Shown here piece by piece: positions 11,720 through 56,870 of a DNA stretch of 64,000 nucleotides (position 1 is its first letter; every line of letters begins with the position of its first letter). Origin of the DNA: Pristiophorus japonicus (lineage: Eukaryota); contig NC_091995.1 of assembly GCF_044704955.1 (NCBI RefSeq), positions 434,001 to 498,000 on the forward strand, in the 5' to 3' direction. The notes under the pieces were generated by a model. That model was not told the origin of the DNA and searched no databases. It saw only the letters and a list, made by a program, of their open reading frames with translations. Made by a program: the position numbers and the translations under genes.

Positions 11720-13790
11720 CCGGCATTTATATAGCGCCTTGCTCAACCGCCTAACTCCCACAGCCCTCGACAGCCAATCACGTCCTTGTGCAGTGTGCTC
11801 ACTGGTGTATTGTGGGTAACGCGGCAGTCAATCTGTGCACAGCAAGATCCCACACACAGCACTGTGACAATGGCCAGACAATCTGTTTGTGTTGTTGGTC
11901 GAGGGATCAATATTGTCCCAGGACACCGGGGAACTCTTCTTCAAATAGTGCCCTGGGATCTTTTACATCCACCCGAGAGGGCAGGGGCCCTCGGTTTAAC
12001 GTCTCATCCAAAACACAGCACCTCCGACAGTGCGGCACTCCCTCAGTACTGCCCCTCCGACACTGTGGCACTCCCTCAGTACTGCCCCTCCGACAGTGCA
12101 GCACTCCCTCAGCACTGCCCCTCCGACAGTGCGGTACTCCCTCAGTACTGCCCCTCCGACACTGTGGCACTCCCTCAGTACTGCCCCTCCGACAGTGCGG
12201 TACTCCCTCAGTACTGCCCCTCCGACAGTGCAGCACTCCCTCAGCACTGCCCCTCCGACAGTGCGGCGCTCCCTCAGTACTGCCCCTCCGACAGTGCGGT
12301 GCTCCCTCAGCACTGCCCCTCCGATAGTGCAGCACTCCCTCAGTACTGCCCCTCTGACAGTGCAGCACTCCCTCAGTACTGCCCCTCCGACAGTACGGCA
12401 CTCCCTCAGTACTGCCCCTCCGACAGTGCGGCACTCCCTCAGTACTGCCCCTCCGACAGTGCGGTGCTCCCTCAGTACTGCCCCTTTGACAGTGCGGCAC
12501 TCCCTCAGTACTGCCCCTCCGACAGTGCGGTGCTCCCTCAGTACTGCCCCTCCGACAGTGCGGCACTCCCTCAGTACTGCTCCCCCGACAGTGCGGCACT
12601 CCCTCAGTGCTGCCCCTCCGACAGTGCAACACTCCCTCAGTGCTGCCCCTCCGACAGTGCGGTGCTCCCTCAGTACTGCCCCTCCGACAGTGCGGTGCTC
12701 CCTCAGTACTGCCCCTCCGACAGTGCAACACTCCCTCAGTGCTGCCCCTCCGACAGTGCGGTGCTCCCTCAGTACTGCCCCTCCGACAGTGCAACACTCC
12801 CTCAGTGCTGCCCCTCCGACAGTGCGGTGCTCCCTCAGTACTGCCCCTTTGACAGTGCGGCACTCCCTCAGTATTGCCCCTCCGACAGTGCAGCACTCCC
12901 TCTGTACTGCCCCTCCGACAGTGCAGCACTCCCTCAGTACTGCCCCTCCGACAGTGCGGCGCTCCCTCAGTACTGCCCCTCCGACAGTGCGGCACTCCCT
13001 CAGTACTGCCCCTCCGACAGTGCGGCGCTCCCTCAGTACTGCCCCTCCGACAGTGCGGCACTCCCTCAGTATTGCCCCTCCGACAGTGCGGCGCTCCCTC
13101 AGTACTGCCCCTCCGACAGTGCGGCGCTCCCTCAGTACTGCCCCTCCGACAGTGCGGCACTCCCTCAGTACTGCCCCTCCGACAGTGCAGCGCTCCCTCA
13201 GTACTGCCCCTCCGACAGTGCGGCGCTCCCTCAGTACTGCCCCTCCGACAGTGAGGCACTCCCTCAGTACTGCCCCTCCGACAGTGCGGAGCTCCCTCAG
13301 TACTGCCCCTCCGACAGTGAGGCACTCCCTCAGTACTGCCCCTCCGACAGTGCGGCGCTCCCTCAGTACTGCCCCTCCGACAGTGAGGCACTCCCTCAGT
13401 ACTGCCCCTCCGACAGTGCGGCGCTCCCTCAGTACTACCCCTTCGACAGTGCGGTACTCCCTCAGTACTACCCCTCCGACAGTGCGGTACTCCCTCAGTA
13501 CTACCCCTCCGACAGTGCGGTACTCCCTCAGTACTACCCCTCCGACAGTGCGGCACTCCCTCAGCACTGCCCCTCCGACAGTGCGGCGCTCCCTCAGTAC
13601 TGCCCCTCCGACAGTGCGGCACTCCCTCAGTACTGCCCCTCCGACAGTGCGGTACTCCCTCAGTACTGCCCCTCCGACAGTGCGGTACTCCCTCAGTACT
13701 GCACTGGATTTATGTGGTCCTGTCCCTGGAGTGGGACCTGAACCTCCTGACTCAGAGGTGAGACTGCCACCGAGTGACACACAGCAGACT
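11720..13790 (-). mobile_element. DeuSINE (SacSINE1/AmnSINE-like) with internal 33-bp array (~51 copies, 12020-13700)
   Basis: tRNA-like head at ~13700-13780; Deu domain (GGATGAGACGTTAAACCGAGG...) at 11900-12015; AAGGCGCTATATAAATG tail at ~11725-11740. Confidence 0.8.
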
Positions 13791-13934
13791 TAAAACTATC
13801 GAATGATACAGTACTGAAGGGGGCCGTTCAGCCCCCTGCTTCCAGATCTCGCCAGCCTTGTGCAACAGCTGGCAAACCTGAGGTTGTCGGGGGATTGATT
13901 TTACACATTCCGGTTCATTTTAGAATCTTTTTAA

Positions 13935-14385
13935 TAGAATCCTAAAATCCGAGAAAGGTTACAGCACAGCAGGAGGCCATTCGGCCCGTCCAGCCCGTGC
14001 TGGCTCTCGGTAAGAGCACTCGGCCAGTCCCACTCCCCCGCCCTTTCCCCGTAGCCCAGCAAATCTTTTTCCTTCAGGTATTTATCCAACTCCCCTTTGA
14101 AAGCCACGATCGAGTCTGCCTCCCTCACCCTCTCAGGCCGTGCATTCCAGATCCTAAACACTCGCTGCGTGAAATGTTTTTCATGTCGCCTTTTGCCAAT
14201 CACCTTAAACCTGTGTCCCTCTGGTTCCCGACCCTTCCACCAATGGGAACAGTCTCTCGCGATCGACTCTGTCCAGACCCCTCATGATTTTGAACATCTC
14301 GATCAAATCTCCTCTCAACCTTCTCTGCTCCCAGGAGAACAACCCCAGCTTCTCCAGTCTATCCACGGAACTGAAGTCCCTCATC
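13935..14385 (-). mobile_element. CR1 LINE 3' fragment
   Basis: LEKLGLFSWEQRRLRGDLIE...GYGERAGEWD. Confidence 0.85.
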
Positions 14386-17023: not shown

Positions 17024-17224
17024 TAAACATTTTGCGTCTGCTGTGTGTTTTCCATGTCATCAAGCTCAAACGTGCATGAACACCACAAAGCATAAGAATA
17101 TATTCCTGCAGGACACAAATAGCTGAGGATCGTCTGATAATGTTTACACCACTAAAATACGGCTTTGAGGAGGGAGACTGGATTGGACATCACCAAGGTC
17201 CAGGTCGGTGATTGGAGCGCGGGA

Positions 17225-18337
17225 CAGGTACAGCAGGAGCGGCGAGAGATCGCGGAGTGATGTAATCTGGGCCTAGGAGAGGCGAGAGTTCGGGGCCCAG
17301 GAGAGGCGAGAGTTCGGGGCCCAGGAGAGGCGAGAGTTCGGGGCCTAGGAGAGGCGAGAGTTCGGGGCCCAGGAGAGGCGTGAGTTAGGGGCCCAGGAGA
17401 GGTGCGAGTTAGGGGCCCAGGAGAGGTGCGAGTTAGGGGCCCAGGAGAGGCGAGGGTTCGGGGCCTAGGAGAGGCGAGGGTTCGGGGCCCAGGAGAGGCG
17501 AGGGTTCGGGGGCCAGGAGAGGCGAGAGTTCGGGGCCCAGGAGAGGCGAGGGTTCGGGGCCCAGGAGAGGCGAGAGTTCGGGGCCCAGGAGAGGCGAGAG
17601 TTCGGGGCCCAGGAGAGGCGAGAGTTCGGGGCCCAGGAGAGGCGAGAGTTCGGGGCCCAGGAGAGGCGAGAGTTCGGGGCCCAGGAGAGGCGAGAGTTCG
17701 GGGCCCAGGAGAGGCGAGAGTTCGGGGCCCAGGAGAGGCGAGAGTTCGGGGCCCAGGAGAGGCGAGAGTTCGGGGCCCAGGAGAGGCGAGAGTTCGGGGC
17801 CCAGGAGAGGCGAGAGTTCGGGGCCCAGGAGAGGCGAGAGTTCGGGGCCCAGGAGAGGCGGGAGTTCGGGGGCCAGGAGAGGCGAGAGTTCGGGGCCCAG
17901 GAGAGGCGAGAGTTCGGGGCCCAGGAGAGGCGAGAGTTCGGGGCCCAGGAGAGGTGAGAGTTCGGGGCCCAGGAGAGGCGAGAGTTCGGGGCCCAGGAGA
18001 GGCGAGAGTTCGGGGCCCAGGAGAGGCGAGGGGTAGCACGGACCAGCCCACACTGCGATGTGGGCACACTGGGTCCGTGCAGCAGAGCTGGTCTCCAGGG
18101 GTCCTGGTTAACCCTTGCCCCTGGACCCAGACCTAGCTCTGTCAAGCCCGTGTGGTGGCTGGTGTGCAACGGTCACCCCACGTTAAACAAATCTACGCAC
18201 AGGCATCTTCCACCCTTCAGGATGTAGTTCGGGATCTGGAATATCTCGTCCTTCACTGAAACACCTGTGAACTCATCCGTTTTTGCCGTGGAAGCAAGTC
18301 ATCCTCGCCTCGAGGGACTGCCGATGATGATGTTGAT
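17225..18337 (+). mobile_element. Non-autonomous element with RTE-type 3' tail, carrying a 24-bp array (~31 copies, 17275-18030)
   Basis: Unit GGCGAGAGTTCGGGGCCCAGGAGA. 3' end GTGGAAGCAAGTCATCCTCG..CGAGGGACTGCC.ATGATGATG matches the RTE tails in this window. Confidence 0.7.
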
Positions 18338-18477
18338 GTGTCCTGGGAAACCTCAGAGACTGAACTCGTGCTTGGATCTCGAGTGGCTTCTCATAGCATG
18401 GCCCAGGGCCCAGACGCTCTCACACTGTAACTGGCCTCAGCTCCCGCAGCTTATCAGAACAGAATCATGGAATTGTA

Positions 18478-19040
18478 CATAAGAATATAAGAAATAGGAG
18501 CAGGAGTCGGCCATTCGGCCCCTCGAGCCTGCTCCACCATTTAATACGATCATGGCTGATCCGATCATGGACTCAGCTCCACTTCCCTGCCCGCTCCCCA
18601 TAACCCTTCACTCCCTTATCGGTTAAGAAACTGTCTATCTCTGTCTTAAATATATTCAATGTCCCAGCTTCCACAGCTCTGAGGCAGAGAATTCCACAGA
18701 TTTACAACCCTCTGAGAGAAGAAATTCCTCCTCATCTCAGTTTTAAATGGGCGGCCCCTTATTCTAAGACCATGCCCCCTAGTTCTAGTCTCCCCCATCA
18801 GTGGGAACATCCTCTCTGCATCCACCTTGTCAAGCCCCCTCATAATCTGATACGTTTCGATAAGATCACCTCTCATTCTTCTGAATTCCAATGAGTAGAG
18901 GCCCAACCTCCTCAACCTTTCCTCATAAGTCAACCCCCTCATCCCCGGAATCAACCGAGTGAACCTTCTCTGAACTGCCTCCAAAACAAGTATATCCTTT
19001 CGTAAATATGGAAACCAAAACTGCACGCAGTATTCCAGGT
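18478..19040 (-). mobile_element. CR1 LINE 3' fragment
   Basis: QFWFPYLRKD...WNSLPQ plus 3' UTR. Confidence 0.9.
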
Positions 19041-19042
19041 AT

Positions 19043-21025
19043 ACAACAACAACTTGTATTTATATAGCGCCTTTAATGTAGTAAAATGTCCCAAGATGCT
19101 TCACAGCAGCGTTACAGACAAACAGATAAAATTTGACCCCGAGCCACATAAGTAGAAATTAACGCAGGTGACCAAAAGCTGGGTCACAGAGGGAGGGTTT
19201 AAGGAGTGTCTTGGAGGAGGGAAGAGAGGGAGAGAGGAGGAGAGGTTTAGGGAGGGAGTTCCAGAGCTTGGGGCCCAGGCAGCTGAAGGTACGGCCACCG
19301 ATTGTGGAGCGATTATAATCAGGGATGGTCAGGAGGGCAGAATTAGAGGAGCGCAGAGATCTCGGGGGTTGTGGGGCTGGAGGAGGTTACAGAGATAGGG
19401 AGGGGTGTAGGGGCTGGAGGAGGTTACAGAGATAGGGAAGGCTGTAGGGGCTGGAGGAGGTTACAGAGACAGAGGGGCAAGGGCCACGGAGGGATTTGTA
19501 ACAGAGGATGAGAATTTTGAAATCGAGGTGTTGTTTAACCAGGAGCCAATGTAGGTCAGTGAGCACAGGGGGTGATGGGTGAGTGAGACTTGGTGCGAGT
19601 TAGGACACGGAGTCAGTGAGCACATGGGGTGATGGGTGAGTGGGACTGGGTGCGAGTTAAGACATGGGTCAGTGAGCACAGGGGGTGATGGTTGAGCGGG
19701 ACTGTGTGTGAGTTAGGACACGGGTCAGTGAGCACAGGGGGTGATGGGTGAGCGGGACTGGGTGCGAGTTAGGACACGGGGGCAGTGAGCACAGGGGGTG
19801 ATGGGTGAGTGGGACTCGGTGTGAGTTAGGACACGGAGTCAGTGAGCACAGGGGGTGATGGGTGAGTGGGACTGGGTGCGAGTTAAGACATGGGTCAGTG
19901 AGCACAGGGGGTGATGGTTGAGCGGGACTGTGTGCGAGTTAGGACACGGGTCAGTGAGCACAGGGGGTGATGGGTGAGCGGGACTGGGTGCGAGTTAGGA
20001 CACGGGGGCAGTGAGCACAGGGGGTGATGGGTGAGTGGGACTCGGTGCGAGTTAGGACACAGGGCAGTGAGCTCAGGGGGTGATGGGTGAGTGGGACTGG
20101 GTGTGAGTTAGGACACGGGGCAGTGAGCACAGGGGGTGATGGGTGAGTGGGACTCGGTGTGAGTTAGGACACGGGGGCAGTGAGCACAGGGGGTGATGGG
20201 TGAGCGGGACTTGGTGCGAGTTAGGACATGGGTCAGTGAACACAGGGGGTGATGGGTGAGTGGGACTGGGTGTGAGTTAGGACACGGGGCAGTGAGCACA
20301 GGGGGTGATGGGTGAGTGGGACTGGGTGTGAGTTAGGACACGGGGACACAGGGGGTGATGGGTGAGTGGGACTCGGTGCGAGTTAGGACACAGGGCAGTG
20401 AGCTCAGGGGGTGATGGGTGAGTGGGACTGGGTGTGAGTTAGGACACGGGGGCAGTGAGCACAGGGGGTGATGGGTGAGTGGGACTCGGTGCGAGTTAGG
20501 ACACAGGGCAGTGAGCTCAGGGGGTGATGGGTGAGTGGGACTGGGTGTGAGTTAGGACACGGGGGCAGTGAGCACAGGGGGTGATGGGTGAGTGGGACTC
20601 GGTGCGAGTTAGGACACAGGGCAGTGAGCACAGGGGGTGATGGGTGAGCGGGACTGGGTGCGAGTTAGGACACGGGGGCAGCCGAGTTTTGGATCACCTC
20701 TAGTTTACGTCGGGTAGAATGTGGGAGGCCGGCCAGGAGAGTGTTGGAATGGTCAAGTCCGGAGGTAACAGAGGCATGGGTGAGGGTTTCAGCAGTGGAT
20801 GAGCTGAGGCAAGGGGTGTAGACTGGCGATGTTACACAGTTTCCACGTGTACACTGATGACACCCAGCTCTACCTCACCCCCATTGTGTTCGGTCCCCAT
20901 CATAAACTGCGTTCCCTAGCCACCGAGTCTGTCCCTCTCCCCAGCATCTATCTGAGGCTAAACCAGACTGTTTGCAACCTTGGCTTCATATCTGACCCTG
21001 AAATCAGCTTCCGGCCACATATCCT
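19043..21025 (-). mobile_element. L2-type LINE 3' region with internal ~56-57-bp array (~20 copies, 19557-20680)
   Basis: Minus strand reads IQNSAA.(R)VLTRT(K)S.SPITP...FKILIL, typical of the L2 ORF2 C-terminus. AAAGGCGCTATATAAATACAAG(TTG)n tail. A YTDDTQLY fragment lies at 20850-20875 in + orientation. Confidence 0.75.
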
Positions 21026-22808: not shown

Positions 22809-22824
22809 CTCGACAGGTACTTAC

Positions 22825-22943
22825 AATCGGCTCGGCTGGCTTCTGTTTGCACAATTCAGTCAGGCCTCTGAGCAATGTGGGATTGACATACTTACTCAGG
22901 TAGTCCTCCGCAGCCTGGCCCGCTGGAAATGGCTCGATGGTAA
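22825..22943 (-). CDS. NME5: NME5-like, coding exon 4 (Dpy-30 domain)
   Basis: 119 nt; VTIEPFPAGQAAEDYLSKYVNPTLLRGLTELCKQKPAEPI; cag| acceptor and |gtaagt donor. Confidence 0.92.
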
Positions 22944-23484
22944 CTGTAGGCGTTTGGAAAACACAGAGCAAGTAGTATCCAGCATGTCCCTCCAACAGCA
23001 CGCTAACACCATTTCATGGACCTTCCTAAAGCTTCACCTTTGAAATTCTTCTTCAATTCCTTCATTTGTTAACTTCAAGAAATAAATTAGGCCTCCCCGC
23101 CCCCCTCCCCCCACCCCCCCTCCCCCCACCCCCTCCCCCTCCCGCCCCCATCCCCCCACCCCCTCTCCCCCATCCCCCCTCCCCACCCCCCCACCNNNNN
23201 NNNNNNNNNNNNNNNNNNNNNNNNNNNNNNNNNNNNNNNNNNNNNNNNNNNNNNNNNNNNNNNNNNNNNNNNNNNNNNNNNNNNNNNNNNNNNNNNNNNN
23301 NNNNNNNNNNNNNNNNNNNNNNNNNNNNNNNNNNNNNNNNNNNNNNNNNNNNNNNNNNNNNNNNNNNNNNNNNNNNNNNNNNNNNNNNNNNNNNNCTCGC
23401 CCTGGTGTACTCTACAGTGGAGCACTGCTCTCCGGCATGGCTATCCAGTCTGCAGGTCAAATCCGCTGATGTCCAGCTGAATCT

Positions 23485-24245
23485 GACGACGAGATCCAAC
23501 ACCGCCTCCAGTGCGCCAGTGCAGCCTTCGGCCGCCTGAGGAAAAGAGTGTTTGAAGACCAGGCCCTCAAATCCACCAGCGAGCTCATGGTCTACAGGGC
23601 TGTAGTAATACCCGCCCTCCTGTATGTCTCAGAGACATGGACCATGTACAGTAGACACCTCAAGTCGCTGGAGAAATACCACCAACGATGTCTCCGCAAG
23701 ATCCTACAAATCCCCTGGGAGGACAGACGCACCAACGTTAGTGTCCTCGACCAGGCCAACATCCCCAGCATCGAAGCACTGACCACACTCGACCAGCTCC
23801 GCTGGGCAGGCCACATTGTCCACATGTCAGTCACGAGACTCCCAAAGCAAGCGCTCTACTCGGAACTCCTTCACGGCAAACGAACCAAAAGTGGGCAGAG
23901 GAAACGTTACAGGGACACCCTCAAAGCCTCCCTGATAAAGTGCAACATCCCCACCGACACCTGGGAGTCCCTGGCCAAAGACCGCCCTAAGTGGAGGAAG
24001 TGCATCCGGGAGGGCGCTGAGCACCTCGAGTCTCGTCGCCGGGAGCATGCAGAAACCAAGCGCAGACAGCGGAAGGAGCGTGCGGCAAACCAGTCCCACC
24101 CTCCCCTTCCCTCAACCACTGTCTGTCCCACCTGTGACAGGGACTGTGGCTCTCGTATTGGACTGTTCAGCCACCTAAGGACTCACTTTTAGAGTGGAAG
24201 CAAGTCTTCCTCGATCCCGAGGGACTGCCTACGATGCTGGTGATG
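23485..24245 (+). mobile_element. RTE LINE 3' fragment
   Basis: ORF 23548-24192: KLMVYRAVV..LLY.SETWT...QLRWAGHI...SHLRTHF. Confidence 0.9.
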
Positions 24246-24494
24246 GATAGGGATGTCCATGGAGCCTTATCTTCCCGTTAGTTGTTCAATGGTTCACCAC
24301 CAATCACGGCTGGGTGTAGCAGGACCACAGAGCTTTGACCTGATCCGTTGGTTGTGGGATCACTTAGCTGAACGACCTCCTCCTGTTTGTCGGTTCCTTG
24401 TGAAGGTGGTCATATGGATGAGGTACCCTGGAGTCACAAGCTGTTGGAGATGTGATGGGTGTGGAGAGAGCAGTGACAGTAGGTAATGGCCACC

Positions 24495-24987
24495 CATCAT
24501 CATCATAGGAGGTCCCTCGGGATCGAGGAAGACTTGCTTCCACTCTTAGAATGAATCCTTAGGTGGCTGAACAGTCCAATACGAGAGCCACAGTCCCTGT
24601 CACAGGTGGGACAGACAGTGGTTGAGGGAAGGGGAGGGTGGGACTGGTTTGCCGCACGCTCCTTCCGCTGCCTGCGCTTGGTTTCTGCATGCTCTCGGCG
24701 ACGAGACTCGAGGTGCTCAGCACCCTCCCGGATGCACTTCCTCCACTTAGGGTGGTCTTTGGCCAGGGACTCCCAGGTGTCGGTGGGGATGTTGCACTTT
24801 ATCAGGGAGGCTTTGAGGGTGTCCCTGTAACGTTTCCTCTGCCCACCTTTGGCTCGTTTGCCGTGAAGGAGTTCCGAGTAGACCGCTTGCTTTGGGAGTC
24901 TCGTGTCTGGCATGTGGACAATGTGGCCCTGCCCAGCGGAGCTGGTCGAGTGTGGTCAGTGCTTCGATGCTGGGGATGTTGGCCTGG
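24495..24987 (-). mobile_element. RTE LINE 3' fragment, inverted relative to its neighbour
   Basis: ORF 24503-24913 is nearly identical to the + copy. Confidence 0.9.
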
Positions 24988-44097: not shown

Positions 44098-44104
44098 GTA
44101 ACTC

Positions 44105-45450
44105 TTCCGACCGGGACTGGACAGGTTAGATGCAGGAAGAATGTTCCCAATGTTGGGGAAGTCCAGAACCAGGGGTCACAGTCTAAGGATAAGGGGTAAG
44201 CCATTTAGGGCCAAGATGAGGAGAAACTTCTTCACTCAGAGAATTGTGAACCTGTGGAATTCTCTACCACAGAAAGTTGTTGAGGCCAGTTCGATGGATA
44301 TATTCAAGAGGGAGTTAGATGTGGTCCTTACGGCTAAAGGGAACAAGGGGTATGGAAAGAAAGCAGGAAAGGGGTACTGAGGGAATGATCAGCCATGATC
44401 ATATTGAATGGTGGTGCAGGCTCGAAGGGCCGAATGACCTACTCCTGCACTTATTTTCTGTATTTCTATGTTTTCCTGTTTTTTTTTTAAACAATCATTC
44501 CTTCATTATTCTTTCTATCGAGAGAGGAAATTACAAAGTGCTGCAGTACAGCGGGACCTGGGGGTACTTGTGCATGAAACACAAAAGGTTAGTGTGCAGG
44601 TACAGCAAGTGATCAGGAAGGCCAATGGTATCTTGGCCTTTATTGCAAAGGGGATGGAGTATAAAAGCAGGGAAGTCTTGCTACAGTTATACAGAGTATT
44701 GGTGAGGCCACACCTGGAGTACTGCGTGCAGTTTTGGTTTCCATATTTACGAAAGGATATACTTGCTTTGGAGGCAGTTCAGAGAAGGTTCACTCGGTTG
44801 ATTCCGGAGATGAGGGGGTTGACTTATGAGGAAAGGTTGGGCCTCTACTCATTGGAATTTAGAAGAATGAGAGGGGATATTGAAACATAAGATACTGAGG
44901 GGGCTTGACGGGTAGATGCAGAGAGGATGTTTCCCCTCGTGGGGGAATCTAGAACTAGGGGGCATAGATTCCGAGTAAGGGGTCGCCCATTTAAAACTGA
45001 GATGAGGAGGAATTTCTTCTCTGAGGGTCATGAATCTGGAATTCTCCCAGAGACTGGGTCTTTGAATATATTTAAGGTGGAGATAGACAGATTTTTGAAT
45101 GATAAGGGAGTCGAGGGTTATGGGGAGTGGGCAGGGAAGTGGAGCTGAGTCCATGATCAGATCAGCAATGATTGTATTAAATGGCGGAGCAGGCTCGAGG
45201 GGCCGTATGGCCGACTCCTACTATTTCTTTTGTTCATGGGATGTAGGCGTCACTGGCAAGGCCAACATTTATTGTCCAAAACTCGTTGTCCTCTTGAGAA
45301 GGTGGTGGTGAGCTGCCTTCTTGAACCGCTGCAGTCCGTGTGGTGAAGGTGCTCCCACAGTGCTGTTAGGGAGGGAGTTCCAGGATTGTGACCCAGCGAC
45401 GATGAAGGAACGGCCGATATATTTCCAAGTCAGGATGGTGTGTGTGACTT
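44105..45450 (+). mobile_element. CR1 fragments (44105-44470, 44520-45230) and a HER1-like 3' end on the minus strand (45230-45450)
   Basis: CR1 ORF2 C-terminal translations and tails. Confidence 0.85.
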
Positions 45451-45484
45451 GCCGTTCTTTGTTTAGCGGTAAACTCCCTGCAGG

Positions 45485-46155
45485 TCTCAGGATAAGGGGT
45501 CAGCCATTTAGGACTGAGATGAGGAGAAACTTCTTCACTCAGAGGGTGGTGAATCTCTGGAATTCTCTGCCCCAGAGGGCTGTGGAGGCTCAGTCGTTGA
45601 GTATATTCAAGGCTCAGATCGATAGATTTTTGGGCACTAAGAGAATATGGGGATTGGCAGTAAAATAAGAAACATAACCAGAATTAGGAGCAGGAGCAGG
45701 CCATTCGGCCCCTCGAGCCTGCTCCACCATTCAGTGAGATCATGGCTGATCTTCGACCTCAACTCCACTTTCCTGCACTGTCCCCATATCCCTTGAATTC
45801 CTTAATATCCAAAAATCTTCGTCTTGAATATACTCAGTGACTGAGCCTCCACAGCCCTCTGGGGCAGAGAATTCCAAAGATTCACCAGCCTCTGAGTGAA
45901 GAAATTCCTCCTCACCTCAGTCCTAAATGTCCGACCCCTTATCCTGAGACTGTGATCCCTTATTCCAGACTCCCCAGCCCGGGGGAAACATCCTCCCTGC
46001 ATCTACCCCGTCAAGTCCTATAAGAATTTTGTATGTTTCAATGTGATCTCCTCTCTTTCTTAAACGCCAGAGAATATCGGCCTAGCCTACTCAATCTCTC
46101 CTCCATAGGACAATTTCCCCATCCCAGGAATCAGTCTGGTGAACCTTCGTTGCAG
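45485..46155. mobile_element. Tail-to-tail CR1 foldback composite, copy 2
   Basis: Same junction and arms as 21085-21750. Confidence 0.8.
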
Positions 46156-46749
46156 TAACTGTACACATACTCCAGAGGTGCGGGGTCTCAAACCTGAAAA
46201 CGACCTGTTTATTCCTACTCTGGTTTCTGTCCGTTTACTAATCCTCAATCCATGCGAGTATATTACCCCCAATTCCATTTTGTTCAATAACCTCTTGTGT
46301 GGCTCCTTATCGAATGCCTTCTGAAAATCCAAATACACCACATCCACTGGTTACCCCTTTATCTATTCTGCTCGTTATAAGCTCAAAAACCTCTAACAGA
46401 TTTGTCAAACATGATTTCTCTTTCATAAATCCGTGTTTACTCTGCCCAATCTTATTATTTTCTAAGTGTCCTGTTACCAGGTCCTTGATACATTTGAGCT
46501 TTTTCCCGATTATCAGACTAACTGGTTTTTAATTCCCCCTTTTCTCTCTCCCTCCTTTCTTAAATAGCGGGGTTACTTTAGCTACCTTCCAATCCACGGG
46601 AACCGTTCTAGAATCTGGAATTTTGAAAGATGACAACCACTGCATCCACTATCTCTGTAGGCCATTGGGTCCAGGGGATTTATCAGCTTTCAGTCTCATT
46701 AATTTCATCGTATTTTTTTTTAACTAATACTCATTTTCGCTGAACCCTT

Positions 46750-48500
46750 GGTCCCTTGCAGTCAGAATCAGGTGAATTTATAATGGGGAACAAAGAAATG
46801 GCAGACCAGTTGAACAAATACGGTCTTCACTAAGGAAGACACAAATAGCCTTCCGGACATACTAGGGGACCGAGGGTCTAGCGAGAAGGAGGAACTGAAG
46901 GAAATCCTTATTAGTCAGGAAATTGTGTTAGGGAAATTGATGTGATTGAAGGCCGATAAATCCCCAGGGCCTGATAGTCTGCATCCCAGAGTACTTAAGG
47001 AAGTGGCCCTAGAAATAGTGGATGCATTGGTGGTCATTTTCCAACATTCTATAGATTCTGGATCAGTTCCTCTGGTCTGGAGGGTAGCTAATGTAACACC
47101 ACTTTTTAAAAAAGGAGGGAGAGAGAAAACAGTGAATTATAGACTGACATCAGTAGTGGGGAAAATGTTGGCATCAATTATTAAAGATGAAATAACAGCG
47201 CATTTGGAAAGCAGCGACGGGATCGGTCCATGTATGGATTTATGAAAGGGAAATCATGCTTGACAAATCTTCTGGAATTTTTTGAGGATGTAACTAGTAG
47301 ATTGGACAAGGGAGAACCAGTGGATGTGGTGTATTTGGACTTTCAAAAGGCTTTTGACAAGGCCCCACACAAGAGATTGGTGTGCAAAATCAAAGCACAT
47401 GGTATTGGGGGTAGTGTATTGACGTGGATAGAGAACTGGTTGGCAGACAGGAAGCAGAGAGTTGGGATAAATGGGCCCTTTTCAGAATGGCAGGCAGTGA
47501 CTAGTGGGGTGCTGCAGGGCTCAGTGCTGGGACCCCAGCTATTTACAATATACATTAATGAGTTGGATGAAGGAATTGAATGTAATATCTCCAAGTTTGC
47601 AGATGACACTAATCTGGGTGGCGGTGTGAGCTGTGAGGAGGATGCTAAGAGGCTGCAGGATGACTTGGACAGGTTCGGTGAGTGGGCAAATACATGGCAG
47701 ATGCAGTATAATGTGGATAAATGTGAGCTTATCCACTTTGGTGGCAAAAACAGGAAGGCAGAATATTATCTGAATGGTGACAGATTAGGAAAAGGGGAGA
47801 CCTGGGTACATCAGATATTGAAGGTTGGCATGCAGGTACAGCAGGCGGTGAAGAAGGCAAATGGTATGTTGGCCTTCATAGCGAGAGGATTTGAGTATAG
47901 GAGCAGGGAGGTCTTACTGCAGTTGTACAGGGCCTTGGTGAGGCCTCACCTGGAATATTGTGCTCCGTTTTGGTCTTCTAATCTGAGGAAGGACATTCTT
48001 GCTATTGAGGGAGTGCAGCGAAGGTTCACCAGACTGATTCCTGGGATGGCAGGACTGACATATGAAGAAAGACTGGATCGACTGGGCTTATACTCACTGG
48101 AGTTTAGAAGGATGAGAGAGGATCTCATTGAAACATATAAAATTCTGACGGGACAGGACAGGTTAGATGCAGGAAGAATGTTCCCGATGTTGGGGAAGTC
48201 CAGAACCAGGGGACACAGTCTAAGGATAAGGGGTAGGCCATTTAGGATCGAAATGAGGAGAAACTTCTTCACTCAGAGAGTGGTGAACCTGTGGAATTCT
48301 CTACCTCAGAAAGTTGTTGAGGCCAGTTCGTTAGATATATTCAAAAGAAAGTTAGATGTGGCCCTTACGGCTAAAGGGATCAAGGGGTATGGAGAGAAAG
48401 CAGGAAAGGGGTACTGAGGGAATGCTCAGCCATGATCTGATTGAATGGCGGTGCAGGCTCGCAGGGCCGAATGGCCTACTCCTGCACCTATTTTCTATGT
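46750..48500 (+). mobile_element. CR1 LINE RT region, 5' truncated and frameshifted
   Basis: ORFs 46946-47245 and 47230-48417. Confidence 0.93.
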
Positions 48501-48559
48501 TACCCGCAAAAGCTATGTGAATGATGTAATCGCGCTCGCTCGCTCTCTCTCTCTGGCAG

Positions 48560-48982
48560 ATTCGCTGATCCGCCAGTCCGTTGGGGAGAAGAAGAATCCT
48601 TTTCGTTACTTCAGCAGCCAGGAGTTGCGGGAGCTGTTCATCCTGGAGGACCCGCGGACCTCCAGCACCCAGCTCCAGCTGCAGTCCATGCACGCCAGCC
48701 AGCGGAAGACTGACAGCGCGCTGGACCAGCACATCGCCTTCCTGCACACCCTGCCCATGTTCGGGGTGACTGACCACGACCTCATCTACTCCCAGGACGT
48801 GCCCCCCGATGAGGAGAACGCCGTCAGCGACCCCCAGGCCTGCCAGTACATCCGCCAGCGGGTGCAAAAAGCCCAGGAGCTGGTGGCCGCCGAGTCCCAA
48901 CTGCAACAGCAGCTGGTCCAGAACCTCCAGACCGACACTGAACCAGCCTGGCTCAAACCCAGGGAGCCTGCGACAATCCCAG
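48560..48982 (+). CDS. ERCC6L: ERCC6L/PICH exon 3 (PICH-family domain)
   Basis: DSLIRQSVGEKKNPFRYFSSQELRELF...YIRQRVQKAQELV..ESQ; ggcag| acceptor and CAG|gtacag donor. Confidence 0.95.
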
Positions 48983-49044
48983 GTACAGTCCGTCTGTTGT
49001 ATTCTGTTTCCCCCTTCCCCCCCACCAACCCCCATGGGTCTTGA

Positions 49045-52000
49045 GAAGTAGCGGCAGGGATAGTGGATGCACTGGTTGTAATTTACCAAAATTCCCTGGA
49101 TTCTGGGGCAGTCCCAGCGGATTGGAAAACCGCAAATGTAACACCCCTATTTTTTTTTTTAAAAAAGGAGGCAGACAAAAAGCAGGAAACTATCGACCAG
49201 TTAGCCTAACATCTGTGGTTGGGAAAATGTTGCAGTCCATTATTAAAGAAGCAGTAGCAGGACATTTGGAAAAGCAAAATTCGATCAGGCAGAGTCAGCA
49301 TGGATTTATGAAGGGAAGTCATGTTTGACAAATTTGCTGGAATTCTTTGAGGATGTAATGAACAGGGTGGATAAAGGGGAACCAGTGGATGTGGTGTATT
49401 TGGACTTCCAGAAGATATTCGACAAGGTGCCATATAAAAGGTTACTGCACAAGATTAAAGTTCACGGTGTTGGGGGTAATATATTAACATGGATAGAGGA
49501 TTGGCTAACTAACAGAAAACAGAGAGTCGGGATAAATGGTTAATTCTCTGGTTGGCAATCAGTAACTAGTGGGGTGCCGCAGGGATCAGTGCTGGGACCC
49601 CAACTATTTACAATCTATATTAACGACTTGGAAGAAGGGACTGAGTGTAACGTAGCCAAGTTTGCTGACGAGACAAAGATGGGAGGAAAAGCAATGTGTG
49701 AGGTGGACACAAATAATCTGCAAAAGGACATAGACAGGCGAAGTGTGTGGGCAAAAATTTGGCAGATGGAGTATAATGTGGGAAAGTGAGAGGTCATGCA
49801 CTTTGGCAGAAAAAAAATCAAAGAGCAAGTTATTATTTAAGTGGAGAAGATTGCAAAGTGCCGCAGTACAGCGGGACCTGGGGGTCATCATTGGCAGTCC
49901 CTCGGAATCGAGGAAAACTTGCTTCCACTCAAAATGAGTCCTCAGGTGACTGAACAGTCCAATACGAGAACCACAGTCCCTGTCACAGGTGGGACAGACA
50001 GTGGTTGAGGGAAGGGGAGGGTGGGACTGGTTTGCCGCACGCTCCTTCCGCTGCCTGTGCTTGCTTTCTGCATGCTCTCGGCGACGAGACTCGAGGTGCT
50101 CAGCGCCCTCCCGGATGCACTTCCTCCACTTAGTGCGGTCTTTGGCCAGGGACTCCCAGGTGTCAGTGGGGATGTTGCACTTTATCAGGGAGGCTTTGAG
50201 GGTGTCCTTGTAACGTTTGCTCTGCCCACCTTTTGGCTCGTTTGCCATGAAGGAGTTCCAAGCACTGACCACACTCGATCAGCTCCGCTGGGCAGGCCAC
50301 GTTGTTCACATGTCAGACACGAGACTCCCAAAGCAAACGCTCTACTCGGAACTCCTTCGCGGCAAGCCAGCCTTTGGGTGCAGCTGGAAGTTGATTGGCC
50401 ATCCCGAGTTTCCTCACCAAGGTGGCCATACCTCTGTCTTGCTCGAGGGCTACTAAATGTCACACCGAGGCCCAGGTAAGGAAAGGGCATCGGTGAACCA
50501 GTTGGGTTTTAGCGACAATCCCACAGTTTCAGAGCAAGAGGATAACTTGAGAAAGCATGGGGCCTATTAGAGACCACAAAGGAAATCTCTGTGGAGGCAG
50601 AAGACATGGGTAGGATTCTCAATGAATACTTTGCATCTGTTTTCACGAGAGAGGGGCGATGCAGACTTTGCAATGAGGGGGGAGGAGCGTGAAATATTAG
50701 ACAAGATAAACATAGTGAGAGAGGAAGTATTAAGGGGCATAGCAGCTTTGAAAGTGGATAAATCCCCAGCCCCGGATGAAATGAATCTCAGGCTGTTAAG
50801 CGAAGCAAAAGAGGAAATAGCAGAGGCTCTGACCATCATTTTCCAATCCTCTTTGGCTACAGGTGTGGTGCCACAGGACTGGAAGATGGCTAATGTGGTA
50901 CCTTTGTTTAAAAAAATAAGAAAGGGATAGACCGAGTAATTACAGGCCAGTCAGCCTTACCTCAGTGGTGGGAAAGTTATTGGAAAAAATCCTGAGGGAC
51001 AGGATAAATCTTCATTTAGAAAGACACGGATTAATCAAGGACAGTCAGCATGAATTTGTTAAGGGAAGGTCGTGCCTGACTAACTTGACTGAATTTTTCG
51101 AGGAGGTAACAAGGAGAATCGATGAGGGCAGTGTGTTTGATGTAGTGTATATGGATTTTAGCAAATGGCAGATTGGTCACAAAGGTAAAAGCCCATGGGA
51201 TCCAGGGCAAAGTGGCAAGTTGTAACTAGCAGAGTGGACAAGGGAGAACCAGTGGATGTGGTATATTTGGACTTTCATAGGCTTTTGACTAGGTCCCACA
51301 CAAGGGATTAGTGTGCAAAATCAAAGCGGGGGTTATTGGGGGTAATGTACTGACGTGGATAGAGAACTGGTTGGCAGACAGGAAGCAGAGAGTCGGGATA
51401 AACGGGTCCTTTTCAGAATGGCAGGCAGTGACTAGTGGAGTGCCACAGGGCTCAGTGCTGGGACCCCAGCTCTTTACAATATATATTAATGATTTGGACA
51501 AAGGAATTGAGTGTAATATCTCCAAGTTTGCAGATGACACTAAACTGGGTGGCGGTGTGAGCTATGAGGAGGACGCTAAGAGGCTGCAGGGTGACTTGGA
51601 TAGGTTAACTGAGTGGGCAAATGCATGCAGATGCAGTATAATGTGGATAAATGTGAGGTTATCCATTTTGGGGGCAAAAACACGAAGGCAGAATATTATC
51701 TGAATGGCAGATTAGGAAAAGGGGGGAGGTGCAACGAGACCTGGGTGTCATGGTTCATCAGTCATTGAAAGTTGGCATGCAGGTACAGCAGGTGGTGAAG
51801 AAGGCAAATGTTATGTTGGCCTTCATAGCTAGGGGATTTGAGTATAGGAGCAGGGAGGTCTTAACTGCAGTTGTACAGGGCCTTGGTGAGGCCTCACCTG
51901 GAATATTGTGCTCAGTTTTGGTCTCCTAATCTGAGGAAGGACGTTCTTGCTATTGAGGGATTGCAGCGAAGGTTCACCAGACTGATTCCAGGAATGGCTG

Positions 52001-54540
52001 GGCTGTCATATGAGGAGAGACTGGATCGACTGGGCCTTTATTCACTGGAGTTTAGAAGGATGAGAGGGGATCTCATAGAAACGTATAAGATTCTGACAGG
52101 ACTGGACAGGTTAGATGCAGGAAGAATGTTCCCGATGTTGGGGAAGTCCAGCATCAGGGGACATAGTCTTAAGATAAGGGGTAGGCCATTTAGGACTGAG
52201 ATGAGGAGAAACTTCTTCACTGAGTTGTTAACCTGTGGAATTCCCTGCCGCAGAGAGTTGTTGAGGCCAGTTCGTTAGATATATTCAAGAGGGAGTTAGA
52301 TGTGGCCCTTACGGCTAAAGGGATCAAGGGGTATGGAGAGAAAGCAGGAAAGGGGTACTGAGGGAGTGATCAGCCATGATCTTATTGAATGGCGGTGCAG
52401 GTTCGAAGGGCCGAATGGCCTACTCCTGCACCTATTTTCTATGTTGGATCCAAAATTGGCTCAGGCAGGAAGCAAAGGGTAATGGTCGATGGGTGTTTTT
52501 GTGACTGGAAAGATGTTTCCAGTGGGCTTCCGCAGGGCTCAGTACTGGGTCCCTTGCTTTTTGTGGTATATCAATGACTTGGACTTGAATGTTGGGGGTA
52601 TGATTAAGAATAATATATATAAGAACATAAGAATTAGGAACAAGAGTAGGCCATCTAGCCCCTCGAGCCTGCTCCGCCATTCAACAAGATCATGGCTGAT
52701 CTGGCCGTGGACTCAGCTCCACTTACCCGCCCGCTCCCCGTAACCCTTAATTCCCTTATTGGTTAAAAATCTATCTATCTGTGACTTGAATACATTCAAT
52801 GAGCTAGCCTCAACTGCTTCCTTGGGCAGAGAATTCCACAGATTCACAACCCTCTGGGAGAAGAAATTCCTTCTCAACTCGGTTTTAAATTGGCTCCCCC
52901 GTATTTTGAGGCTGTGCCCCCTAGTTCTAGTCTCCCCGACCAGTGGAAACAACCTTTCTGCCTCTATCTTGTCTATCCCTTTCATTATTTTAAATGTTTC
53001 TATAAGATCACCCCTCATCCTTCTGAACTCCAATGAGTAAAGACCCAGTCTACTCAATCTATCATCATAAGGTAAACCCCTCATCTCCGGAATCAGCCTC
53101 GTGAATCGTCTCTGTACCCCCTCCAAAGCTAGTATATCCTTCCTTAAGTAAGGTGACCAAAACTGCACGCAGTACTCCAGGTGCGGCCTCACCAAGAAGT
53201 TTGCAGCTGACACTAAAATAGGCCGTGTGGTTGATAATGAAGAAGAAAGCTGCGGACTGCAGGAAGATATCGATGAACTGGTCAGGGGGTACAACAGTGT
53301 GAAGTGATAGATTTTGGTATAAACTAAAAGGGGTGCATGTGCAGAAATCGTTGGAGGTGGCGGGGTGGGTTGAGAAAGTACTTAAAAAAGCTTACGGGAT
53401 CGTGGGCTTCATAAGTAGAGGTACAAAAGCAAGGTCTCTGAGGGTTGTAAATCTGGAATTCGCTGCCTCAGGGAGCTGTGGAAGCTGGGATATTGAATAA
53501 ATTTAAGATGGAGATAGACAGTTTCTTAACCGATAAGGGAATAGGGGGGCGGGCAGGGAATGGAGCTGAGTCTATGATCAGATCTTATCTTATCTGAGGA
53601 GGTTCACTCGGTTGATTCCGGAGATGAGGGGGTTGACTTATGAGGAAAGGTTGAGGAGGTTGGGCCTCTACTCATTGGAATTCAGAAGAATGAGAGGTGA
53701 TCTTATCGAAACGTATCAGATTATGAGGGGGCTTGACAAGGTGGATGCAGAGAGGATGTTTCCACTGATGGGGGAGACTAGAACTAGGGGACATAATCTT
53801 AGAATAAGGGGCCGCCCATTTAAAACTGAGATGAGGAGGAATTTCTTCTGAGGGTTGTAAATCTGTGAAATTCACTGAGAGCTGTGGAAGCTGGGACATT
53901 GAATAAATTTAAGATGGAGATCGACATATGTTTAAATGACAAGGGAGTGAAGGGTTATGGGGAGCGGGCGGGGAAGTGGAGCTGAGTCCATGATCAGATC
54001 AGCCATGATCGTATTAAATGGCGGAGCAGGCTCGAGGGGCCGTATGGCCGACTCCTGCTTCTATTTCTTATGTTCTGTAACAGCAAGGACGTTAGGTTGG
54101 AGCTTTATAAAACACTGGTTCGGCCTCAACTGGAGTATTGTGTCCAATTCTGGGCACGGCACTTTACGAAGGATGTGATGGCCTTAGAGAGGGCGCAGGA
54201 AAGATTTACACTGTGTGGATAGACTGGAGAAGCTGGGCTTGTTCTTCTTGGAGCAGAGAAGGTTGAAAGAACATTTGATAAAGGCGTTCAGAATCATGAG
54301 GGGTCTGGACAAAGTAGGTTGGCTAAGTGTAGCCATCTGATCAGAACTGGAGGCCATTCAGCCCCTCGAGCCTGTTCCGCCATACAATGAGATCATGGCT
54401 GATCTGTATCCCAACACTTATCCATACCTCCCGCCTTGTATCCATAACCCTCAATACCCTTGGCTACCAAAATCCATCCATCTTCGACTTAACAAATTCA
54501 TTGACCGAGCATCTACTGCTTTGTGTGGAAGAGAGTTCCA
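49045..54540. mobile_element. Cluster of nested CR1 and RTE fragments (RTE - 49886-50260; CR1 + 50570-52445; CR1 - 52620-53195; CR1 + 53590-54075)
   Basis: Repeated RT and C-terminal motifs in both orientations. Confidence 0.85.
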
Positions 54541-54654
54541 CATTTCTACTACCCGTCATTATTAAGTTGTGTGTGATGTTCCTGCTGGGTCAAGCCTGTA
54601 TACCGTGGCTTGTGTTTGTGGTTGGTTGTCAGGACGACCCACCAGTTGAAGGCT

Positions 54655-56870
54655 GTGCGATGTCCGTAGCTCGGTGGGTAGCATTCGCACCTCTGAGACA
54701 CAAGGTTGTGGATTCGAGTCCCACTCCAGGGACTTGGGCACAAAAATCTAGGCTGACACTGCAGTGCAGTGCTGAGGGAGCGCCGCACTGTCGGAGGAGC
54801 AATACTGAAGGGGGGCAGTGCTGAGGGAGCGCGGCAGTGCTGAGGGAGCGCCGCACTGTCGGAGGGGCAGTACTGAAGGGGGGCAGTGCTGAGGGAGCGC
54901 CGCACTGTCGGAGGGGCAGTGCTGAGGGAGCGCCGCACTGTCGGAGGGGCAGTGCTGAGGGAGCGCCGCACTGTCGGAGGGGCAGTACTGAGGGAGTGCC
55001 GCACTGTCGGAGGGGCAGTACTGAGGGACTGTCGCATTGTCGGAGGGTCAGTACTGAGGGACTGTCGCACTGTCGGAGGGGCAGTACTGAGGGAGCGCCG
55101 CACTGTCGGAGGGGCAGTACTGAGGGAGCGCCGCACTGTCGGAGGGTCAGTACTGAGGGAGCGCCGCACTGTCGGAGGGGCAGTACTAAGGGAGCGCCGC
55201 ACTGTCGGAGGGGCAGTACTGAGGGAGCGCCGCACTGTCGGAGGGGCAGTACTGAGGGAGCGCCGCACTGTCGGAGGGGCAGTACTGAGGGTGTGCCGCA
55301 CTGTCGGAGGGGCAGTACTGAGGGAGTGCCGCACTGTCGGTGGGACAGTACTGAGGGAGTGCCGCACTGTCGGAGGGGCAGTGCTGAGGGAGTGCCGCAC
55401 TGTCGGAGGGGCAGTACTGAGGGAGTGCCGCACTGTCGGTGGGACAGTACTGAGGGAGTGCCGCACTGTCGGAGGGGCAGTACTGAGGGATTGCCGCACT
55501 GTCGGAGGGGCAGTGCTGAGGGAGTGCCGCACTGTCGGAGGGGCAGTACTGAGGGTGTGCCGCACTGTCGGAGGGGCAGTACTGAGGGAGTGCCGCACTG
55601 TCGGTGGGACAGTACTGAGGGAGTGCCGCACTGTCGGAGGGGCAGTGCTGAGGGAGTGCCGCACTGTCGGAGGGGCAGTGCTGAGGGAGTGCCGCACTGT
55701 CGGAGGGGCAGTACTGAGGGTGTGCCGCACTGTCGGAGGGGCAGTACTGAGGGAGTGCCGCACTGTCGGAGGGTCAGTACTGAGGGTGTGCCGCACTGTC
55801 GGAGGGACAGTACTGAGGGAGTGCCGCACTGTCGGAGGGGCAGTACTGAGGGAGTGCCGTACTGTCAGAGGGGCAGTACTGAGGGAGCGCCGCACTGTCG
55901 GAGGGGCAGTACTGAGGGAGTGTCGCACTGTCGGAGGGGCAGTACTGAGGGAGCGCCGCACTGTCGGAGGGGCAGTACTGAGGGAGTGCCGCACTGTCGG
56001 AGGGGCAGTACTGAGGGAGTGCCGCACTGTCGGAGGGGCAGTACTGAGGGACTGTCGCATTGTCGGAGGGTCAGTACTGAGGGACTGTCGCACTGTCGGA
56101 GGGGCAGTACTGAGGGAGCGCCGCACTGTCGGAGGGGCAGTACTGAGGGAGCGCCGCACTGTCGGAGGGTCAGTACTGAGGGAGCGCCGCACTGTCGGAG
56201 GGGCAGTACTAAGGGAGTGCCGCACTGTCGGAGGGGCAGTACTGAGGGAGCGCCGCACTGTCGGAGGGGCAGTACTGAGGGAGCGCCGCACTGTCGGAGG
56301 GGCAGTACTGAGGGTGTGCCGCACTGTCGGAGGGGCAGTACTGAGGGAGTGCCGCACTGTCGGTGGGACAGTACTGAGGGAGTGCCGCACTGTCGGAGGG
56401 GCAGTGCTGAGGGAGTGCCGCACTGTCGGAGGGGCAGTACTGAGGGTGTGCCGCACTGTCGGAGGGGCAGTACTGAGGGAGTGCCGCACTGTCGGTGGGA
56501 CAGTACTGAGGGAGTGCCGCACTGTCGGAGGGGCAGTGCTGAGGGAGTGCCGCACTGTCGGAGGGGCAGTACTGAGGGTGTGCCGCACTGTCGGAGGGGC
56601 AGTACTGAGGGAGTGCCGCACTGTCGGAGGGTCAGTACTGAGGGTGTGCCGCACTGTCGGAGGGACAGTACTGAGGGAGTGCCGCACTGTCGGAGGGGCA
56701 GTACTGAGGGAGTGCCGTACTGTCAGAGGGGCAGTACTGAGGGAGCGCCGCACTGTCGGAGGGGCAGTACTGAGGGAGTGTCGCACTGTCGGAGGGGCAG
56801 TACTGAGGGAGTGTCGCACTGTCGGAGGGGCAGTACTGAGGGAGTGCCGCACTGTCAGAGGGGTGGCACT
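54655..56870 (+). mobile_element. DeuSINE 5' part with 33-bp array (~63 copies, 54770-56865); Deu domain absent
   Basis: tRNA-like A/B boxes TAGCTCGGTGGGTAG...GGATTCGAGTCCC at 54667-54722, then the array. Confidence 0.85.

Follow-up and report, generated by a model that had tools for sequence, protein, structure and literature searches.

The distal several megabases of Pristiophorus japonicus chromosomes contain minisatellites within old retroposon copies, and it is probable, if by no means secure, that these expanded by recombination after insertion of their hosts, with the 33-bp unit of a SINE likely having had a single origin and then been passed between copies by ectopic gene conversion. 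The phenomenon itself is already published for Xenopus and squamates. What is new here is the sharing of derived bases by the SINE units, their younger look than the flanks and the replacement of a native hairpin. The window analysed (64,000 nts, contig NC_091995.1, positions 434,001 to 498,000) is 0.45 Mb from the end of C19 (a location on a microchromosome was rejected as C19 is 100 Mb).

All eight large arrays in the window are real and are members of genome-wide families (Table 1). Each was recovered by TRF in or beside the kind of element to which a preliminary description had assigned it, and, as it had also stated, one strand of each unit is G-rich (skew 0.35–0.68) and contains GGG runs (1.2–4.8 per unit). 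Its list of hotspots was incomplete, lacking a second L2 hotspot, the 37-mer, which attains 114 units just outside the window. The 50-bp unit had been ascribed to a CR1 stop region; it is instead the continuation of a ~95-bp degenerate CR1 3′ piece on the minus strand and not of the preceding plus-strand CR1 ORF. Amplification of one constant segment throughout a family holds for SINE and L2, while the 24-bp arrays repeat two adjacent, paralogous segments within a stretch that is natively repetitive, type B amplifying the neighbour of the type A segment (units 20/24 identical on reading the TRF consensus). The labels L2, CR1, RTE and Deu are our assumption from characteristic motifs, the preliminary description and RVT_1 hits; Pfam found no domain in the L2 ORF2 end and Rfam gave chance or palindrome matches only. 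Taken as a candidate SacSINE1-like DeuSINE, the SINE has visible A- and B-box-like motifs in its head (Rfam tRNA E 0.019, below the gathering score; ARAGORN, no genes at 6 loci), and its 3′ tail agrees at 21 of 23 bases with the 3′ terminus of the L2 copy at 19040, with no match to a second L2 end.

Table 1. Array-bearing elements and host genes in the window.
Feature	Position	Strand	Remarks
SINE copy A, tRNA-headed and L2-tailed, complete, array-bearing	11724..13771	-	
33-bp array of SINE copy A	12021..13702	-	51 units (TRF)
RTE-tailed non-autonomous element	17180..18340	+	24-bp type A array 17269-18030 (32 units, TRF); tail 44/52 identical to RTE-like 3′ end in window
L2-type LINE 3′ fragment	19040..20834	-	contains both L2 hotspots
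L2 37-bp hotspot	19366..19469	-	2.8 units (TRF)
56-bp array within L2 ORF2 end	19557..20681	-	20 units (TRF)
Host gene, NDK and Dpy-30 domains	22823..32970	-	ends approximate; presumably NME5-like
Piece of RTE-tailed element family	26231..28389	+	24-bp type B array 26231-28355 (88 units, TRF)
SINE copy B, headless	30620..32718	+	array 30620-32438 (55 units, TRF), then 3′ body; most of a ~2.17 kb intron of the NDK/Dpy-30 gene
Degenerate CR1-type 3′ piece and 50-bp array	35820..37244	-	piece 35820-35915, continued by array 35916-37244 (27 units, TRF)
Host gene, SNF2 helicase of ERCC6 group, C-terminal TPR	38946..58404	+	four exons read; presumably ERCC6L/PICH-like
L2-type fragment	41406..42755	+	56-bp array 41554-42620 (19 units, TRF); intron 1 of the SNF2 helicase gene
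SINE copy C	54677..56874	+	head, then array 54766-56874 (~62 units, TRF), without 3′ body; intron 3 of the SNF2 helicase gene

The lengths given for single arrays in the window are those of the assembly, and an assembly artefact was considered on that ground. It is scarcely credible, as units differ within arrays (88–97% matches by TRF for the window arrays) and raw-read contigs from four runs, labelled as four organisms, span unit junctions at ~10-fold or more over flank.

Genome-wide the SINE 33-mer has 189,508 exact junctions and the CR1 50-mer 92,810, with none in either reversed-pattern control, and a third pattern gave 36,621 against 17 in its control, all well above what chance would give. 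Counted by first junctions, the loci number 4,344 for SINE and 2,893 for L2 (56-mer), both figures being somewhat inflated by segmental duplicates. The parent elements are found genome-wide and the arrays, at many loci and each with a fixed part of an interspersed element as its unit, are distal, so the suggestion that a chromosomal domain is involved is supported. Array coverage in 98 sampled 10-kb stretches was 34%, 4.4% and 0.1% at <1, 1–10 and >10 Mb from an end respectively (20 of the 50 stretches at 1–10 Mb were sited in zones already known for dense arrays, and all 5 at <1 Mb border on the window). The share of SINE copies with arrays falls from 7 of 7 nearest the ends to 1 of 25 in interior samples, and since total SINE density is near constant (61, 72 and 58 per Mb) arrays replace single copies rather than add to them. 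On C1, for which array positions are complete (they are partial for C2, C3 and C19), there are 27 SINE arrays and 2 single-unit copies at 0–9 Mb versus 11 and 93 at 11–25.9 Mb (Fisher p 3e-17 for the contrast between the zones, the search patterns for arrays and single copies differing in stringency). At 26–532 Mb of C1 there are only 6 SINE arrays, and 44 of its 49 L2 arrays are distal. In chromosomes of 8–95 Mb arrays are present in 4 of 18 stretches, all 3–7 Mb from the end. GC climbs from 46% to 54% toward chromosome ends.

The array hosts are old, about 10% diverged: SINE flanks differ from the majority sequence by 10.1% for arrays and 10.9% for singles. With 40 flanks scored in each of two sets, the best non-self identity was 82% in one and 95% in the other; the near-identical copies are segmental duplicates, and no young near-identical dispersed copies are among those scored. 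A mobile array-bearing subfamily had been one of the two proposals of the preliminary description, and a tree of the flanks its recommended check. For L2 that proposal fails, array copies being polyphyletic and a single array-bearing clade being rejected (AU p 0.014 for 14 vs 33 copies; 0.022 for 4 vs 11). As array-bearing L2 copies are not one clade, array growth there was mainly in place. For SINE a mobile subfamily is disfavoured: 330 flank bases hold no fixed diagnostic for arrays, and in favour of polyphyly the array label makes 30 changes on the SINE tree versus 34.9 when shuffled. But this tree is star-like (3/102 branches starred) and does not reject a single array clade (AU p 0.31), and some association with flanks does exist. 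One flank variant occurs in 11 array copies out of 40 versus 1 single out of 44, and of a group of 14 copies 13 bear arrays. Five duplicates whose flanks are 98.7–99.5% identical have 24–40 units, which shows that array length changes in place.

Among the L2 and the 24-bp arrays, several arose independently and in place. The two L2 hotspots are the most G-rich stretches of the ORF2 end and coincide with two G4Hunter peaks; their arrays have junctions of several types, and some of the unit variants are private. In the RTE-tailed element one to three loose 24-bp units are native, and its array units vary by locus. These features fit independent slippage at short direct repeats, after which G-rich variants could have prevailed at each locus through G4-linked instability or GC-biased conversion, and a T-to-G change extending a G run, present in both SINE and L2 units, also fits. 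As a general account it is improbable, because thousands of SINE loci would each have had to undergo an identical transversion, A/T sites elsewhere in the SINE unit remain A/T at >=92% and this unit lacks a compact G4 motif. A four-G3-tract motif was present in the L2 56-mer, the CR1 50-mer and 24-mer B and absent from 24-mer A and the SINE 33-mer (motif scan only, with loops <=12 nt; G4Hunter 0.75 for the SINE unit). The G4-linked process formerly suggested thus suits L2, CR1 and one 24-mer, but is not the general cause, because the commonest unit has no compact motif. General GC-biased conversion in flanks was rejected: SINE array-host flanks have no excess of weak-to-strong changes (0.059 vs 0.057–0.069).

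For the 50-mer the possibility arises that arrays are mobile as free minisatellite DNA, in the form of circles or of templates for repair, whose landing site is a homologous element only in some cases. There is no CR1 sequence on the right of the window 50-mer array, and most inspected 50-mer arrays have no clear CR1 flank on one or both sides, though they share the unit. Flanks can, however, be removed by later insertions and deletions, and both SINE and L2 arrays are in exact register within their hosts (25/30 best flank matches for SINE), so that such mobility is very improbable.

The amplified SINE segment is 33 bp and is flanked by a short direct repeat. Of the slippage process previously put forward, plain repeated slippage fails for SINE units since the junction base is not the T that it would give. 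The first-junction base is G in 98, A in 2 and T in none of 100 copies, and T occurs at 58 of 2,650 SINE junctions overall. Slippage would give a G junction if the precursor had G at the corresponding exit base, but such a precursor was rejected, none of the 48 unselected single-unit copies counted having G there. Position 19 is C in 69% of first units versus 1 of 38 interior singles. At position 6 first units have G in 55%, much as singles do (58%), and internal units have A in 90%. Non-CpG divergence is 2.8% in array units versus 6.5% in their own flanks, and 4.7% versus 7.1% in singles.

These shared derived bases, the younger look of units than of flanks and the replacement of the native hairpin favour one origin of the SINE unit and its spread by ectopic conversion, a reading with about an even chance, over ancient retrotransposition of a master that already had two or more units and the G junction, whose copies would then have grown distally and collapsed to one unit, or been rare, in the interior. 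Such a master is rather unlikely. It accounts for the universal G junction, which is in all 8 complete SINE arrays of 2–4 units; first units with G followed by A units are what a two-unit master would leave; the partial flank association and the unrejected clade agree with it; and time for collapse was ample. Set against it are the lack of any fixed difference in the 330 flank bases beside four shifted sites within 33 unit bases, and the near absence of the array allele at position 19 from interior singles. Among 68 unselected complete SINE copies 48 have one unit, none has two or three and 20 have 4–42; the 30 copies nearest one young single copy include 7 with 9–40 units and none with 2–4. 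Flat SINE density also means that singles are depleted distally. For L2 a master is further opposed by rejection of the single clade and by the 56- and 37-bp units, which disrupt the ORF2 frame. Conversion in turn meets the objections that array edge effects could preserve an ancestral first unit, and selection for pure units could make units look young, without traffic between loci; the star-like tree, the unrejected clade and the partial flank signal also count against it.

It is the element itself that sets which segment is amplified. The same derived unit, seen in SINE hosts across the family tree, was then probably acquired through a break in a single-unit copy and repair templated by an array-bearing copy, and array length afterwards shifts in place. 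Distal restriction may reflect high recombination and contacts among chromosome ends. The native single unit is the strongest predicted DNA hairpin of the SINE (−13 and −15 kcal/mol in two copies; −1 to −12 in other 61-nt windows), with modest z-scores (−1.7, −3.3) to which that of the head window is comparable (−3.1). Deletions overlap it in 12/63 copies versus 45/642 window-copies elsewhere, an excess recognised post hoc. A hairpin within the array itself was rejected, as the array, unlike the native single unit, folds no better than shuffles. Tentatively, the unit may be a homing minisatellite: cutting of the hairpin near its loop would lead to copying of several units from an array SINE on another end, and the imported junction G and position-19 C would weaken the hairpin, giving one-way conversion over most end-proximal SINEs in several shark species.

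The spread of a minisatellite over thousands of dispersed loci is usually credited to ‘concerted evolution’, untried by test. In this genome array copies in their thousands can be set beside thousands of related single-unit copies, which serve as controls along a sharp gradient of position, and several species share the unit, so that orthologous loci offer a direct test of conversion versus master inheritance. The array fraction may also preserve a record of past recombination and of former chromosome fusions, and the arrays account for some of the excess of simple repeats described from shark chromosome ends. The intron inflation foreseen for them is real locally, arrays making up 84%, 55%, 37%, 26% and 0% of five introns; exact matches to three units, which give a minimum, total only ~12 Mb (0.2% of the genome), and the arrays explain local intron growth but not the 5.9-Gb genome size.

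SVA-like elements are mobile retroposons that carry a VNTR. The shark arrays differ in having no subfamily with diagnostic flanks (rejected for L2; no fixed diagnostic for SINE, AU p 0.31) and no young near-identical dispersed copies among the scored flanks. No paper on these shark arrays was found in the openly accessible literature; a Repbase/Dfam consensus may already hold the arrays. In sharks, GC, substitution rate and simple-repeat content are higher toward ends and on short chromosomes (PMC10620051, PMC13100897, PMC11406177), the relevant passages of these papers identifying neither the repeats nor a retroposon origin. Mammalian minisatellites derived from Alu, B1 and MaLR were seeded at predisposed retroposon sites, among them a B1-derived VNTR family present at many mouse loci (as cited in PMC9659126); the human repeats are reported to come from any part of an element, and the passages concerned describe no near-saturation of a chromosomal domain.

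Closer are squamate sSat1-3, where part of a SINE is tandemly repeated at many subtelomeric loci, longer arrays being more uniform within and between loci and copy number differing at orthologous loci (PMC10702118). The sSat units are 70–290 nt and usually retain one SINE end, whereas shark units are 24–56 nt, often with both host ends intact, and concerted evolution is invoked generally, without flank phylogeny in the relevant passages. Closest is Xenopus, where expansion of a constant 52-bp segment of SINE/tRNA-V is restricted to subtelomeric copies, intact copies being genome-wide, and where CR1- and Kolobok-derived arrays with TGGG/AGGG enrichment are likewise ascribed to recombination (bioRxiv 10.1101/2021.10.18.464293). 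Main-text passages of that account analyse neither the sharing of derived bases nor transfer from one copy to another. In the shark the distal zone extends ~10–15 Mb on C1, 75–100% of sampled SINE copies there are occupied, and L2 and the RTE-tailed element participate as well.

All eight arrays of the preliminary description were found in the window where it had placed them, and they do lie in or beside the named kinds of element. Tandem arrays make up 29% of the window (C19:434,001-498,000), which, C19 being 100.1 Mb long (assembly size 5.92 Gb), lies ~0.45 Mb from the start of the chromosome and includes WD40-like, NDK plus Dpy-30 and SNF2 helicase genes. The repeat families point to a cartilaginous fish. 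The labels Deu, L2, CR1 and RTE for the elements of the window are assumed, some of them carried over from that description; the SINE tail is L2-like (21/23 bases match), an open frame of 234 codons in a single-unit L2 copy spans both L2 hotspots, and RVT_1 is present in two CR1-type copies. The 24-bp segment, stated to be alike in both RTE-tailed copies, is not so: the sources are two adjacent paralogous segments of one element, which natively has one to three loose 24-bp units. The 50-bp unit assigned to the CR1 stop region does adjoin a short minus-strand CR1-type tail, but on its right side there is no CR1. L2 carries a second hotspot, of 37 bp, absent from the earlier list; its arrays, present in 10/23 distal and 0/8 interior copies, reach up to 114 units, and their state is independent of that of the 56-bp hotspot. 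Six further window arrays, for which no element source was found, are mostly strongly G-skewed.

In the NDK gene, arrays constitute ~84% of one intron (2.17 kb) and 37% of another (7.4 kb); their shares of the three helicase introns are 55%, 0% and 26% (boundaries exact to a few bases). The proposal that they inflate introns holds for these large local shares, but the three counted units come to ~12 Mb, 0.2% of the genome, as a lower bound.

Locations of features in the window (plain positions), on chromosomes or contigs (C) and in stretches of genome fetched for analysis (L)
Feature	Location	Observation
CR1-type copy	1-2670	524-codon open stretch with RVT_1; apparently young
Array, no element source found	5943-6488	
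Array, no element source found	7888-11224	
Array, no element source found	11385-11596	no skew, no GGG run
Array, no element source found	22536-22809	
Array, no element source found	25310-25954	
Array, no element source found	39623-40393	
37-bp L2 hotspot	19366-19469; L153:2006-6327	
Palindrome	24160-24950	inverted RTE-type pair, tail-to-tail
Palindrome	L015:1329-1433	inverted SINE pair, head-to-head
Gene, presumably ERCC6L-like	38946-58404	at least 4 coding exons; coding sequence very GC-rich
Array of 65-68-bp units	L165:6894-7614; L164:4374-4631; L023:2308-2893; L003:2565-3318; others	7 loci with nearly the same unit; family probably also derived from an element
Segmental duplicates	C1:0.27-3.3 Mb (L121-L125, L261-L278)	about five, near-identical, some inverted
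Larger duplicated unit	C363, C381, C391, C467, C1038, C1328, other small contigs (L011, L012, L016-L018, L022, L025, L027-L030)	every 6-28 kb; one SINE array, length differing per copy
Wholly tandem 10-kb stretches	C19 at 6, 60, 70, 80 Mb (L167, L180, L182, L184)	four, unrelated units

Exact counts over the whole genome are 189,508 for 33-mer (SINE unit) junctions, 92,810 for 50-mer junctions and 36,621 for triple 24-mers. With the SINE head pattern, a second unit follows the first in 4,344 copies, whereas 19,638 leave after one; for L2, 2,893 copies have a second unit versus 6,626 with one. The array fractions, 18% (SINE) and 30% (L2), are only rough since the array and single patterns differ in stringency. 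In 4 of the 24 runs listed, which carry the labels of four organisms, raw-read contigs span the unit junction, with no alternative junction base at 10% or more. The array class is therefore not the product of assembly inflation, and is common to several species; this check applies to the class rather than to individual array lengths, and summed contig depth does not equal copy number.

The arrays are restricted to distal regions. On C1 (546 Mb), 45 of 50 multi-unit SINE exits are in the first 16 Mb or the last 14 Mb (2 of 30 fetched turned out to be single-unit). SINE arrays versus singles there number 27 vs 2 at 0-9 Mb and 11 vs 93 at 11-25.9 Mb or, with segmental duplicates collapsed, 23 vs 2 and 4 vs 93. 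L2 arrays are distal in 44/49 cases, 95 of the first 100 L2 singles listed are at 9-73 Mb, and of the 8 loci of the CR1 50-mer on C1, 7 are no more than ~10 Mb from an end. Among 98 sampled 10-kb stretches (20 of the 50 at 1-10 Mb being picked in array-dense places), coverage by seven unit types is 34% at <1 Mb, 4.4% at 1-10 Mb and 0.1% at >10 Mb from an end, and the ratio of SINE arrays to short clusters is 5:0, 27:9 and 1:24 respectively. One of the arrays at <1 Mb spans two stretches; with the window added, 7/7 SINE copies have arrays. Overall SINE density is near-constant, ~60-70 per Mb, so singles are depleted where arrays are abundant. The few interior arrays on C1 cluster near 218-223, 295, 328-333 and 404-428 Mb, and by analogy with frogs could possibly be relic chromosome ends from old fusions. 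The interior of C19 is not repeat-poor; it is just these element-derived arrays that are missing from it.

The length of an array alters in situ. At the tip of C1, five duplicates whose flanks are 98.7-99.5% identical have 40, 38, 24, 28 and 34 units, and 11 copies on small contigs, with 3′ flanks 97.5-99.4% identical, have from 5 to 45 or more. The hosts are old and mixed. From 161 SINE 3′ flanks found, 46 were too short and 115 were aligned, of which 10 near-identical duplicates were dropped; in the remaining 105, divergence from the majority is 10.1% for array copies and 10.9% for singles. A tree of the flanks had been proposed to distinguish a mobile array-bearing subfamily from expansion in situ. 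For L2, either flank rejects a single array clade (p 0.014 with 14 vs 33 copies; p 0.022 with 4 vs 11), array copies and singles differ at no flank column at p<0.005, and units of 56 and 37 bp cannot stay in frame with ORF2. For the SINE, the test does not reject a single array clade (p 0.31), on a tree with little power; on this star-like tree the array label changes 30 times vs 34.9 in shuffles, 27/500 of which were as low. No base is fixed in array copies in the 105-copy flank alignment, and one variant is enriched with arrays (11/40 vs 1/44 singles). Among 40 scored SINE flanks the best non-self match is 95%; in the first 30 scored matches, 7 have 9-40 units, 16 have one and none has 2-4, the other 7 having a deletion, truncation or unscored unit. 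That a source copy already with two or more units was retrotransposed, with collapse to one unit in the interior, is an unlikely though not negligible alternative.

The SINE unit common to the arrays is derived and probably has a single origin. The native segment is flanked by a short direct repeat with a one-base mismatch, slippage between which would give junction T. Of 100 listed copies, 98 have G at the first junction, 2 have A and none has T (all junctions gathered: G 2,513, A 64, T 58, C 15); the junction base is G in 8/8 complete arrays of 2-4 units, and the exit base is G in 0/48 unselected singles. Locus consensus differs from global consensus at 1.1/30 bases in 100 arrays, nearly all at three shared sites, and at 2.6 in singles. 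At position 6, first units resemble singles, with G in 55% and 58% respectively, but internal units have A in 90% and last units in 93%. Array units are 2.8% diverged vs 6.5% in their own flanks, and singles 4.7% vs 7.1% (array vs single: units p 0.011, flanks p 0.37). Units are locus-specific in the 24-bp arrays, and among L2 arrays there are several types of junction and some private unit variants, as expected from independent in-place origins. Recombination may drive array growth, and ectopic conversion, to which we give about an even chance, may have passed the SINE unit between copies, though part of its signal can be imitated by edge effects and by selection for unit purity. Spread of the 33-mer between copies is testable, and partly supported.

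The seeds are fixed. The native SINE segment has a predicted 11-12-bp hairpin whose 5-nt loop occupies unit positions 9-13. Its energies of -13.2 and -15 kcal/mol (z -1.7 and -3.3) compare with -12 for the head window and only -1 to -6 for five body windows. In first units the predicted loop separates host-type site 6 from array-type sites 16 and 19, and the junction G and position-19 C would each break a stem pair of the hairpin. Deletions hit the segment in 12/63 non-array copies vs 45/642 elsewhere (p 0.003, post hoc with two adjacent windows excluded). The suggested G4-linked process fits L2, whose two hotspots are the two highest G4Hunter peaks over ~750 bp, but not the SINE and one of the two 24-bp units (24-mer A), which have no compact G4 motif.

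Squamate sSats are, in the excerpted account (PMC10702118), subtelomeric SINE-derived repeats, more uniform with greater length; as there described, they resemble the 33-mer arrays in being part of a SINE, tandem and placed at chromosome ends. Excerpts of shark genome papers (PMC10620051, PMC13100897, PMC11406177) have simple repeats enriched at ends and on short chromosomes and do not name them; neither 'tandem' nor 'minisatellite' occurs in the main text of PMC5499810. The arrays are real and genome-wide, and belong to a kind already known.
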